Origin: Stegostoma tigrinum
Taxonomy: Eukaryota
DNA: 64,000 bases
Reading direction: 5' to 3'
Assembly (NCBI RefSeq): GCF_030684315.1
Contig: NC_081391.1
Location: 20,792,629-20,856,628 of the forward strand
Shown here: piece by piece, positions 31,490-62,885 of the stretch
How the letters are laid out: each line of letters begins with the position of its first letter
How positions within the stretch are numbered: position 1 is the stretch's first letter
The notes under the pieces: model-generated
Told to the model about the DNA's origin: nothing
The model's input: the letters and a program-made list of their open reading frames with translations, nothing else
Database searches by the model: none
Translations under genes and position numbers: made by a program

Positions 31490-31711
31490 CTCCCTGTATT
31501 CCAAATTTCTGATTGGCTCTGGGTTTTAGCCCATCCCAACATCCCCCTTTCCCTATTCATTGGTAACTGGATTGATAGGAGATTCCTGATTGGATGTCAG
31601 GGATTGTCAATCATTATTAATAATGTTACGCCCTGTTTCTTCCTTGGAGGAAGAGTACAAGAGGTTGTGGTAGTGAGGCTTGGTTTTAGAGTTGTCTTGG
31701 TGATAGTGAAT
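31490..31711 (+). promoter_or_regulatory. Proximal promoter of copy E (CCAAT boxes retained, TATA box lost)
   Basis: ATTGG at ~31512, ~31559 and ~31589. Where copies G and I have tataaatacaagag, E has aagagtacaagag. Confidence 0.65.
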
Positions 31712-34360
31712 ATGGCCTCCCAAGTGTGTCAGAACTACCATGAGGACTGTGAGGATGCTGTTAACAAGCAGATCAACCTGGAGCTTTATTCTTCCTATGT
31801 TTACCTCTCCATGGTGAGTGTTGTCTCTGGGTTTATTTAGGTTTAAATCTTTACCCAGATTGTATTGAGGGTGTAGGATTTATTTGCATCATTTGATTCC
31901 TGTTTAATTAGTGTTCTGTTTGTAGCCCTTCCCTTGCTCTACCTGGAGTAGTGAATATGTTGTGGTTTTTTTTTTCCACAAAAAGTTATCAATGCTTTGT
32001 GTTCTTGGTGTGTGTGATCTGAGTATACTTTGCTTCTGCAGTGTATTAGGGTTAACTGCCTTGAACAAAATCTCATCAGGTTGATCAGGGCACTGAGCTA
32101 TCTCAGAGCATGTGATGCATGAACCTGAGGGGCTGTCCTCCCAGAGCTAGGAGCACTACCATTACCCTGAGCTCCAATTGCTGCTAATAGACTACTTATG
32201 GCTTTTTGAAAGCTGTGTGAATTTACTTGTATCAAGCTGAATTCTGAGCTGGGAACCCTCCTGTATTGGAAGGTTTTCTCACTAAGGCTGTGTCATCTTG
32301 TCCTTACCCACATCACAATGAGAGTTTTCTCATGCTTGCTTCTAGCTTGTGTGGAATGTTAATGATCCAACTTCTAAGACAATCCTTCTACTTTTCTCCT
32401 CCTTCAGCAGGGAAGCACTTTAACTGTAGGCTTGGTGTGGTAGACTAGCAAGTGAAGCTATATCATATGGGATTTAGGATAAGCTTGTGAATTCAAGCCA
32501 AAATTGGCTTGACAGTAGGAAGCATGTCTACTTTGGGTACTTGTGGCTTATGGCCAATGACATGCTGCAGGACATACTGGGTCTACTTTTTGTTCAGTTT
32601 TATATAAACTTGCTGAGCAATATGGAGGAATGCTTACAAAGCTTGTGGGTGACTGGCAGTATAGTGGGTGGAGAAGAGATCTTGCTTGACTCTACCAATG
32701 GGCTGAGTGGTGGTTGGAGTAATGCTTTGCTTTTGGGGGTTTTCAAAAAACCTAAAAGGACAGGACTTGCACCTCTAATGGTGGTAGGGCCCTGTGTAGT
32801 GTTGTAGAACAGACCCAAGGACTAGGCTGGTTGTGGAGATGTTTGCCTTTGTTGCTCAGGCATTTGACTATAGTAGTTTGGGTGTCATGCTTCAACAGGA
32901 TATTGAGGCTCCATATGGAGTGCTCTGGTTGTGGCTGGACAATAATAGGAATCCTTAATTTGGGTAAGGGTCAGAAGTGACTTGGCAGGATGTTAGCAGG
33001 ACAGGAGGGTTTGAGTTTAAAGCAAAGCTGGATATGCTGGGACCTACTCGCCCCCACATGGAGTTTGTGGGGGGACCTTGTAGAGACCCAGGAATTCATA
33101 GTGGGCATTGATAGGGTGAATGGCCCCAGTGTTTTTTCTAGTTAGAATTCAAAACGTGGGAGCAAATGGCATATGTTTCAGGGGAAAGGATGTGCAAGAG
33201 GCCTGAAGGAGGTTAATATGGGAATGAACAGCCAGAGGAAGTGGTAGATGCAGGTACAGTTAAATGTCAAAGCCATTAGAACAAGCCTCTAAATAGAGGT
33301 TTACAGGGATATGGGCCAAATAGTGAACTAGGACTGGTTGGATTGAAGGGTCTCACTCCATGCTGTGCTGCTCTGACTCCTTCGAGGGAAGGTTTTTGCT
33401 GGTCCATATATGGGTGACTTTTCTCCTTCAGATATAGAAGTAACTGGTCAGCAGCAATGTTTCTCTCTCCCACAGTTCTCTTACTTTGACCGGGATGATG
33501 TTGCCCTGCGTCACTTTGCTGAGTTCCTCAAGGAGCAGTCCCATGAAGAGCGGGAACACGCTGAGAAACTGATGGCATTCCAGAATAAACGTGGTGGTCG
33601 AGTCCTCCTGCAGGACATAAAGGTTGGGCTTAGTGTCTATCTTGCTAGTTTGGTGGCAATGGTGCTAAATATGGACTTGAAGCAGTTGCTGTTGGTTCAG
33701 TAATAAGGCTATATGCTACACTGATCACTTGTTTATGGATAAAGCAACTTAAGCATTTGCTTATTTTCTCCCCACCAACCCCCCCCCCCACCCCTCCAGA
33801 AGCCAGAGCAGGATGAGTGGGGCAATGGTCTGGAGGCAATGCAGAGAGCTCTGCAGATGGAGAAGGATGTGAACCAGAGTCTGCTGGATCTGCACAAACT
33901 GGCCTCTGGCCACACTGACCCGCATGTGAGTTTTGAAGCTTTCATGCTTGAAAGCAAGGCAGACATCCTCTTGACAGTAATACAATGCCAGGAATAACAG
34001 GATAGATAAATTCTTCCATAAACTTGGAAGCAAATCATCTTTCTGTGCATGTAAATTTTTGTTCTGACAGCCTCCTGCAGCCTGGTGAAACTATAACAGC
34101 TTCACCTGTGTATCCCTCCCTGTTCAGATGGTCACATCTGAAATGGAAGATCCATTTAAAATGGCTTTTTGATCCAGTAGACTGACTTTGACTTTGTTTC
34201 CCTCCAGCTGTGTGACTTCCTGGAGAGGCACTACTTGGATGAGCAAGTGAAGATGATCAAGAAGCTGGGAGATCACATCACCAACCTGAAGAGACTGGGA
34301 GCCCCTGACAATGGCACGGGAGAGTATCTGTTTGACAGGCTCACCCTGGGGGAAGAGTGA
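31712..34360 (+). CDS. Ferritin H/M-type subunit, copy E (intact, 175 aa)
   Basis: Exons 31712-31813, 33476-33622, 33800-33925, 34208-34360, all GT/AG, 528 nt open. [65 protein letters not shown].../...[10 protein letters not shown]. Ferroxidase residues E27, Y34, E61, E62, H65, E107, Q141 (human H numbering) are present. Confidence 0.95.
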
Positions 34361-34547
34361 CTGAACTGCCTGCAGGGAGTGAGCTTGTTGTCATGTGTCT
34401 GAATGGGAGACGTGTAGAGACGACTCCTTTTTGTAGGAGCAGCTCATTGCTCTGTACAAAGTGTAAATAAACTGTGCTATAATGGACCATGTCTTGCCTC
34501 CCTTTCTGGGTTAATCCTTGCTGTGAGCTGTGCTGTAGCTTGATCTT

Positions 34548-34724
34548 GAGATAACAACAAGATGTGGAGTTGGATGAACGCAGTGGGCTGAGCAGGAAGG
34601 CTGAAGTTTTGGGCATAGACTCTTTGAGAGCCTCTGCCTGAAATGTCAGTCTTCCTGCTGCGTTCATCCAGCTCCACACCTTGTTATCGCAGATTCTCCA
34701 GCATCTGCTGTTCCTACTAGCTCA
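34548..34724. mobile_element. Degenerate hairpin Penelope-derived insert in the 3' flank of copy E
   Basis: Inverted arms (..tggagttggatgaac / gttcatccagctcca..). Flanked by gtagct(t)tgatc twice, whereas the paralogous flanks of D, G and H have a single uninterrupted gtagcttgatcctg. Confidence 0.75.
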
Positions 34725-60589: not shown

Positions 60590-62390
60590 AAAGCATAACT
60601 CAGGATTGGCACACCACTGATGTTCTTTCAGAGCTTCAGGGCTTTTTGACCTCAAAAATTTTTTTTTGGGAAGTAGCAGATTATGAAGAAGGGCAAGCTG
60701 GAAAACTTGTCCCATCATTGGGCGCTGGATGGTTGGGAGGAATAACATCATTTGGCATTTCTGTTGTTGCTGTCATCAAGGGTTTTGATGACATTCACAT
60801 GTTTTGGATGATCAATTTTGGGAGACACAGCTTTAGTTCGCGGATAAACATATGGACGTATGTGGAATGGCATAGGTTAGATGGGCTTCAGATCGGTATG
60901 ACAGGTCTTTATTAGGATTATTCCACGGCACAACATCGAGGGCTGAAGGGCCTGTACTGTGCTGTTATGTTCTAAGTATGTCATACAGCTAAGGGAAGTG
61001 ATTGATCAATTCCCAGGCACATGTTGAAGGAAAGGTATGAAGAGCGATTTTTAAAAAGACTGTCTATGTGGGAGGGGTATGGAATTCATCATCAACTATA
61101 CATCTATCAAATCATTCCATAGGATGCTGCTGGACAAACGTAATGAGTGTGCCATTAATGCACAGCTAATTATAGGAAGCAAGTTCAAAACAATTGTCAT
61201 AAGCCAGTAGAATTGGCCAGTGGTTGACTGGAACGATGATTCCAAGCCTTGAATCAGATGTGGCTCATCTTGCCCACCACAGCACTGTCCATCCTTTCAA
61301 GAAACATCCAAGTTGTGCTTTATGTGAGTAGAATTTTTGGTTTCAAATCTATTGGAAGTCCAATAGCTCAGAGAAGCCCAAATAGTAATGCAACACCATA
61401 CGAAGAAGGGCCAAGAAAGAAATAACGCCAAAGAAGCTGAGAAACAGTGCATCCGCCAGGATGTAATCCAACAACAAAAGGGCAGCATCATTGAGAAACT
61501 GCCAAGGTATCTGTGCCTTGTAGATACCATTCTCAGGAAACATTTGAGCAAAACATAAATCCTTATCAACTCATGACTGTAGCAAGGAAGGCGAGAGAAC
61601 AAGGTGTAGAGCTGGATGGACACAGCAGGCCAAGCAGCATCAGGGGAGCAGGAAAGCTGACGTTTTGGGTCAAGACCCTGCTTCAGCTTTCCCGCTTCTC
61701 TGATGCTGCTTGGCCTGCTGTGTTCATCCAGCTCAACACCGTGTTATCTCAGATTCTCCAGCATCGGCAGTTCCTACTATCTCTGTAGCAAGGAATCATA
61801 GTTTTGTTTACAACAGTACAAAAATCAAATAAATTTGTGCCAAATCAATTTATTTGGTTGAATCTACTCATCAGCTGGTATTAGACCTCATCCTGCCAAA
61901 CTAAAAGATATACAGATAGAAATGACTTACACGAGTGTCTTGACTTCTTTGTATTTCTCTGCCCCCATGTTCTGAAATTTGCAACGACTCAGGAGTTCTC
62001 TGCAAAAACATATAGCGGAAAGATCCCCTGCATAAATTAACACTCTTAGGAAAGCTCTGTTAACCAGTAATTGTGTACTTCAAAGCTGTATTATAAATGC
62101 CCTGCAGTGTATTTATTTGCGTATTGACTTGAGAAGAACATGACTATCTGCGGTTTGTGTTACACAGACAACCAGGGAGTAAGCCAGGAACACCACCTAT
62201 TCCCACAGAGCCAGGCACCACAGTCATTCATCAAAGTCTCTGGTGACCATTCAATGACCATGTGATGTCCATTAATTTGGACAATGTGCTTTGTGACCAC
62301 TGGACATTCCCTGCATCTCAGGTCAATTTTGACCAGGACATCTATCAATCTCCAGATACATTTTCCCTTCTGGCAGGTCAACTGTATCCA
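60590..62390 (+). mobile_element. Paralogous Gypsy-like relic upstream of copy I
   Basis: ...QLMTVAR[insert]NHSFVYNSTK..QINLFG.IYSSAGIRPHPAKLKDIQ..NDLHECLDFF, a Gypsy RT-like stretch collinear with 36390-37830. Confidence 0.68.
61590..61782. mobile_element. Hairpin Penelope-derived insert
   Basis: 13-bp TSD CTGTAGCAAGGAA at 61577-61589 and 61783-61795. The paralogous site near 37230 is empty. Confidence 0.85.
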
Positions 62391-62639
62391 TCAGATGGTG
62401 GAAAACTGCTTCATTAAAGGTAACATTTTTTAATCACTTCATACCCACCCCAGGATAGATACTTTCTGAGTAACGTGTTCAGGAGACAGCGGGACCTGAC
62501 TGCAGAGTCTTCAGGCCCAGAGGTATGGACATTATCACAGCACATATCCATTCACCAAAAAAAAACAGCTAGATTGGCCTGTGTTAAGGGCCTATCATCC
62601 AAAAGCACTTGCATCTTTAAGGCTAATTTCCCAAAAGTC

Positions 62640-62885
62640 TCTGTCATCAAAATCTCTGATTGGCTCTGGGTCTTAGCCCCATCCCCATAACACCCTGTCC
62701 CTTTCAATTGGGTGGTGGATTGATAGGGTATTCCAGATTGGCTGACAGGAATTATCAGTGATTATGGCTGATGTCAATCCCTGGTTAAGAGCAGGATGTT
62801 CCCAGGACTATAAATACAAGAGCCTGTGGGAGAGAGAGACTTAGTTCTAGAGTTTTCTTGGTGCTTGTGAGCAGGAATAGTGAAG
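62640..62885 (+). promoter_or_regulatory. Proximal promoter of copy I
   Basis: ATTGG at ~62659, ~62708 and ~62737, CACCC at 62691-62695, TGATAG at 62721-62726, TATAAA at 62809-62814. Confidence 0.72.

Follow-up and report, generated by a model that had tools for sequence, protein, structure and literature searches.

We analyzed a 64,000-nucleotide window of the shark Stegostoma tigrinum (assembly GCF_030684315.1, contig NC_081391.1, positions 20,792,629 to 20,856,628; coordinates below are those of the window) and identified nine ferritin copies, A to I, by self-comparison and exon mapping. No iron-responsive element (IRE) was found ahead of any copy that has an exon 1 in the window. Copies A, B and C lie on the minus strand and D to I on the plus strand. 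Three of them are intact four-exon genes with GT-AG introns and products of 173-175 residues: E (31712..34360; exons 31712-31813, 33476-33622, 33800-33925 and 34208-34360; 175 residues; AATAAA at 34466), F (39393..42105; exons 39393-39494, 40738-40884, 41036-41161 and 41959-42105; 173 residues; AATAAA at 42180) and G (48058..52272; exons 48058-48159, 50932-51078, 51220-51345 and 52120-52272; 175 residues; AATAAA at 52378). Copy I (62809..64000) runs off the window, with exons at 62886-62987, 63657-63803 and from 63959 to the window end, and its frame is open as far as visible. Exon 2 of G matched the Pfam Ferritin family (PF00210) at 43.7 bits, the cut-off being 24.5. The proteins aligned with cytosolic ferritins and had no extension, insertion or targeting peptide, and in E, F and G all the H-type ferroxidase residues (presumably numbered E27, Y34, E61, E62, H65, E107 and Q141) matched those of pig FTH1 in the alignment. 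Carpet-shark ferritins were the closest database proteins, which marks the source as a carpet shark, with no identical one among 120 compared; the closest to G was P0018 of Chiloscyllium plagiosum (164 of 174 residues identical), whose own best matches among solved structures were 176-residue 'ferritin' and 'middle subunit' entries.

A 5' IRE is considered a nearly universal feature of the mRNAs for vertebrate cytosolic ferritins, and an initial annotation of the window had reported no CAGTGH loop on a C-bulged stem in the leaders of G, I and F. This was borne out in all eight copies with an exon 1 (D has none in the window), with scans that did detect IREs in control loci. An Rfam scan of the whole window, a check that the annotation had suggested, gave no match at the gathering level and no IRE at E<=10, nor did 391-nt promoter scans of E, F, G and I match an IRE. 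The same Rfam scan detected IRE_I in four of nine control ferritin loci, with scores of 36.6 bits in two of them and ~23 bits in the other two. When both strands of the full window were scanned for a C-bulge, a 5-bp stem and CAGWGH, no perfect motif was found in the 64 kb (0.5 expected), and three of the 11 control loci contained the motif; these controls were ferritin loci of a metagenome scan with no shark gene among them. Motifs with one mismatch numbered nine (4.6 expected), with none in the leaders and four of the nine within one dispersed repeat family. The pentamer CAG(T/A)G was absent from the last 120 nt before the ATG in all eight copies, and CAGTGA occurred in F, H and I at -126 to -130, that is, upstream of the TATA box. 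Folding of the leaders of G, I, F and E, as delimited by predicted start sites, was no better than that of shuffles (z -0.9 to 0.4). The IRE is genuinely absent from the scanned DNA.

The copies had about 250-300 nt of upstream sequence in common. The initial annotation had placed the TATA boxes and start codons correctly, with TATAAATA at 47983-47990 and the ATG at 48058 in G, TATAAATA at 62809-62816 and the ATG at 62886 in I, and the degenerate TCTAAATA at 39312-39319 and the ATG at 39393 in F. A perfect TATAAATA was present in four of the eight exon-1 copies (A at -65, B at -77, G at -75 and I at -77); the box was degenerate in F, H and C and had decayed beyond detection in E. Between -330 and -81, ATTGG occurred 26 times in the eight copies versus 3.2 expected, a count in which related copies are not independent. 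The longer pattern C(T/A)GATTGG(C/T), which we take to be an inverted NF-Y-type CCAAT box, had nine of its ten window occurrences no more than 330 nt from a ferritin ATG. In five of the eight copies an initiator-like motif lay 32-35 nt past the TATA position, from which a leader of about 43 nt is predicted. In copy G (47909..48057, plus strand), for instance, the inverted CCAAT box at 47909-47917 is followed by TATAAATA and by an initiator-like TCAGTT with its A at 48015, leaving a predicted 43-nt leader without an IRE. Contigs of DNA from the same organism contained many more copies carrying the array promoter at 80% identity or more. In run X1 the summed depth was 290-630 over the promoter versus 10-18 over unique flank, which is not a copy number; the four DNA runs all came from one sample, and their depth shows only that similar promoters are numerous. 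We found no support for a Pbx-Prep (DECA) site next to the CCAAT boxes, an idea taken from PMC6023610: there were 34 matches versus 29.2 expected, with only three in promoters. In copy E a 98-codon open frame (31418-31711) is in frame with the ATG. A protein search with this frame found no homologue, and we took it as chance since the other copies have stops at the same place.

Control by iron regulatory proteins (IRPs) could persist by way of a start site farther upstream, a non-coding first exon or a CAGUG hairpin at about -147 to -103, although we consider this improbable. The hairpin is formed by an imperfect inverted repeat upstream of the TATA-like box of F (39247..39290, plus strand; ~50 nt upstream of the TATA position) and has neither the bulged C at 5 bp nor the sixth loop base. 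It is stable, at -19.6 kcal/mol with a z of -3.8 for a region picked after inspection (z -2.3 in H and -0.8 in I), and this speaks for persisting control. However, no Rfam IRE match was obtained for the region, even on short scans, and the 64 kb hold no perfect motif. There were no compensatory changes in the hairpin across six copies, and 475 of 500 shuffles scored as high. The CAGTG was found in only three of the eight copies, F, H and I, which have a duplicated upstream block in common. The upstream 2-3 kb of these three (36618-39499, 54324-56551 and 60978-62992) are alike at about 74-82% identity, as tandem duplication units. Because such a unit is common to F, H and I, the features that they share count as one event. 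In the DNA runs, C made up 74-97% of the depth at the position where the loop needs its last G, CAGUG being the minority state. We read the hairpin region as probable paired CCAAT-like DNA motifs; a relic of an IRE bypassed by a new TATA box is conceivable, and we found no support for it.

Transcript data from another shark also bear on persisting IRP control. The first 4 million characters of a dogfish liver cDNA file (PMC5568229 data) contained at least one array-type gene, TR59554, whose two isoforms are spliced and polyadenylated. Its 114-nt leader was colinear with the window copies and had, by eye, a TATA-like box at -77, an initiator-like A at -45 and no CAG(T/A)G or IRE loop. The colinearity argues against splicing into the last 114 nt. 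On the other side, the dogfish transcript starts upstream of its TATA-like box, and copy E has no TATA box and a pyrimidine-rich GAG at -62 that is a possible acceptor. The best pyrimidine score of leader AGs was 0.56-0.67 in seven of the eight copies and 0.83 in E. In this weak test, 24 real acceptors averaged 0.82, the lowest of them scoring 0.61. We also compared 20 N-terminally extended database proteins. Three of the models, from horn, sevengill and basking shark, extend across the same TATA-leader DNA (z 9.1, 4.0 and 2.0, respectively), and an IRE-derived peptide was found in none of the 12 extended shark array models and in two of the eight non-shark models. The absence of the IRE appears to be an old feature common to the shark array.

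The copies proved to belong to a lineage of their own. In two quick trees of 82 and 54 chosen proteins, which included no L chain and were assessed by the SH-like approximate likelihood ratio test (SH-aLRT) only, elasmobranch ferritins formed three lineages: FTH1, a second non-FTH1 ferritin and an array clade. Copies E, F and G fell inside the shark-only array clade (SH-aLRT 98-99), together with white shark and nine other shark genera. The FTH1 clade (SH-aLRT 98) was separate and had its own shark members, with one locus listed per species, so that the array copies are not orthologues of FTH1. The second ferritin formed a shark-and-ray clade (SH-aLRT 96-98), mostly represented once per species; its contig has the same length as that of array genes in horn shark, both catsharks and sevengill shark. 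G was 85% identical to a sevengill array protein, 75% to shark FTH1 and 74% to the second gene. The trees did not resolve the branching order among the three lineages or their relation to M and L chains, and the parent gene of the array is therefore not shown. Of the 692 members of nine array clusters, 131 were listed, comprising 130 labelled shark and one bacterial-labelled probable contaminant, with no ray or chimaera protein among them; the array may exist in sharks alone. Both FTH1 and the second single-copy ferritin are retained in rays. Two shark-type ferritins, P0079 and P0323, are labelled Aeromonas veronii and Salmonella enterica in NCBI and are probably contaminants. Several ferritin entries also share a single contig in each of lampreys, coelacanth and lungfish (P0198-P0205, P0314-P0316 and P0378-P0379).

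The remaining five of the nine copies are broken, A, B, C and H by stops or frameshifts. Pseudogene A (53..2117, minus strand) has stops in exons 1 and 2, with exon 4 beyond the window, and B (9290..11739, minus) has two stops in exon 2, a lost exon-4 acceptor and a frameshift; both retain the perfect TATA box and have no IRE. C (14910..17149, minus) has frameshifts in exons 2 and 3 and a divergent promoter, again without an IRE. D (23535..26625, plus) is 5'-truncated and has lost its exon-2 donor, and H (56387..58875, plus) has lost its start codon and has a frameshift in exon 1 and a stop in exon 2, behind a promoter of the same type as in other copies. This decay, along with the loss of the TATA box in E, is what would be expected if the array were mostly neutral debris of tandem duplication, in which the IRE decayed since most copies do not matter. 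We give that explanation little credence. At the level of sequence the intact copies were shown to be under purifying selection: the ratio of nonsynonymous to synonymous substitution (dN/dS) was 0.09-0.35 among E, F, G and I, and 0.62-1.40 in pairs with pseudogene B. Moreover, exons were about 96% identical while most introns did not align, a turnover pattern that fits birth-and-death with selection or conversion acting on exons.

We found no flanking gene outside the ferritin family in the window, and its nine non-ferritin open reading frames had no Pfam match. Between C and D (17150-23534), where the orientation switches from minus to plus and D is without its exon 1, there is likely an inversion breakpoint internal to the array. 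A 670-bp inverted repeat of 97.6% identity (43571-45222) contains one of the frames without a Pfam match (44143-44901), which presumably resembles a GIY-YIG endonuclease of Penelope-like elements.

A giant shark ferritin array, of which the window is a part, has already been reported. Greenland shark is reported to have 155 'FTL' and 179 'FTH1' copies, an expansion common to white shark, with ovary-specific expression of its largest ferritin cluster (scaffold 30) (Sahm et al. 2024, preprint 10.1101/2024.09.09.611499). Like those clusters, the window copies are tandem, ancient and numerous (nine in 64 kb) and group with array proteins of white shark and other sharks. Unlike the labels used there (FTH1, FTL), they form their own clade, at 75% identity to shark FTH1, and are without an IRE. 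Such labelling matters for annotation, in which array copies are called FTH1, FTL, 'heavy chain A/B' or 'middle subunit' and yet represent a separate shark lineage. The word 'iron' does not occur in that preprint, which does not address iron control, and 'ferritin' does not occur in a second Greenland shark preprint (10.1101/2025.02.19.638963). We found no published report of IRE loss in shark ferritins in a search that left most subscription journals outside. What the missing IRE adds to this published family is a new detail of its regulation.

We lean towards the view that the window belongs to a shark-only tandem array with CCAAT-rich promoters and no IRE, which makes cytosolic ferritin in bulk in the ovary and is controlled by transcription and gene dosage. 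NF-Y and TBP would drive mRNAs with a short leader to which IRP1/2 do not bind, and ferritin shells would be made ahead of, or regardless of, free iron. These shells might store or buffer iron in growing oocytes, and routine iron sensing would be left to the single-copy FTH1 and the second single-copy ferritin. Expression in the ovary is carried over from the Greenland shark preprint.

Several points weigh against ovary-directed production without IRP control. The expression evidence comes from other sharks and not from Stegostoma tigrinum, and the ovary result comes from a single sentence of a preprint on a distantly related shark. The only array-type cDNA seen, TR59554, is from a dogfish liver assembly, which indicates presence and not level, and it starts 37 nt upstream of its TATA-like box, so that start sites are not all set by the TATA box. 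Rays lay or carry large yolky eggs, and since none were among the 131 listed of the 692 array members, egg size alone is no explanation. An unnamed ferritin is among the liver-unique proteins in an excerpt of the dogfish paper (PMC5568229).

The liver data raise the alternative that the IRE-less array is a broadly expressed or stress-induced antioxidant ferritin pool in liver, blood and immune tissue and not directed to the ovary, which we regard as unlikely but worth weighing. Hadal snailfish would offer a precedent, having 14 mostly tandem fthl27 copies that are highly expressed in most tissues and tied to resistance to reactive oxygen species (excerpt of PMC10746142). In addition, the shark ovary sits in the lymphomyeloid epigonal organ (PMC5568229, in part), and 'ovary' RNA may therefore include immune cells. 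Against a broad pool, the Greenland shark preprint terms the largest cluster ovary-specific, and a contig assembled from liver does not give a level. The shark ferritins are like fthl27 in their tandem amplification; the expression of fthl27 in most tissues is unlike the proposed ovary-directed array, and the excerpted text on the snailfish is silent on IREs.

Other ferritins provide further comparisons for the proposed ovary-directed array. With vertebrate cytosolic H, M and L ferritins the window genes have in common four exons, the Ferritin domain, the ferroxidase residues and the lack of a targeting peptide; unlike IRE/IRP-controlled members of that group, the shark array has no IRE and has dozens of copies. 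FTHL17 is not known to carry an IRE. According to excerpts of the respective papers, all five salmon H and M isoforms have an IRE (PMC4117605), ferritin mRNA is abundant in fish ovary (PMC2262088, PMC1488847), FTMT is outside IRE/IRP regulation and FTHL17 is expressed in germ cells and has six copies at a single locus in mouse (PMC7760355). The intronless retrocopy FTMT carries a mitochondrial presequence, whereas the shark genes have three introns and no N-terminal extension; FTHL17 is without ferroxidase activity, whereas the shark genes keep the ferroxidase residues. The yolk ferritin of the snails Lymnaea and Biomphalaria also has no 5' IRE and is linked to egg provisioning (PMC10799875, in part), a likeness in the way of working and not in descent. 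That protein is secreted and has a signal peptide, a 42-residue insertion and an origin in the digestive gland, and the shark proteins have neither signal peptide nor insertion. The shark array works like other IRE-less germline or yolk ferritins and is not a member of those families.

The initial annotation had interpreted the family as ferritins uncoupled from IRP control, with output set by transcription and copy number, and had put it forward as a distinct biological system. The loss of the IRE stood, and output through promoter and copy number is supported by the sequence, the look-alike promoters in the DNA runs and the dogfish cDNA. Translation regardless of iron status, which the annotation also proposed, is a prediction. 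The claim of a distinct system was overstated, given that the array was already reported, a separate FTH1 and second ferritin are kept, five of the nine copies are broken and there are precedents without an IRE. The surprise is also limited, because the family and its ovary expression were already reported and IRE-less ferritins exist elsewhere. We put forward more tentatively that the array is a maternal iron bank, in which a ferritin gene with introns would have lost its IRE, gained an NF-Y/TATA oocyte promoter and expanded into tens or hundreds of copies no less than 250 million years ago. Such a bank would be a cytosolic vertebrate counterpart of yolk ferritin beside IRP-controlled ferritins, apparently missing from rays. 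If true, a very large IRE-less family with introns and catalytic residues would be a natural test of the purpose of IRP control and of how iron is supplied to large eggs.

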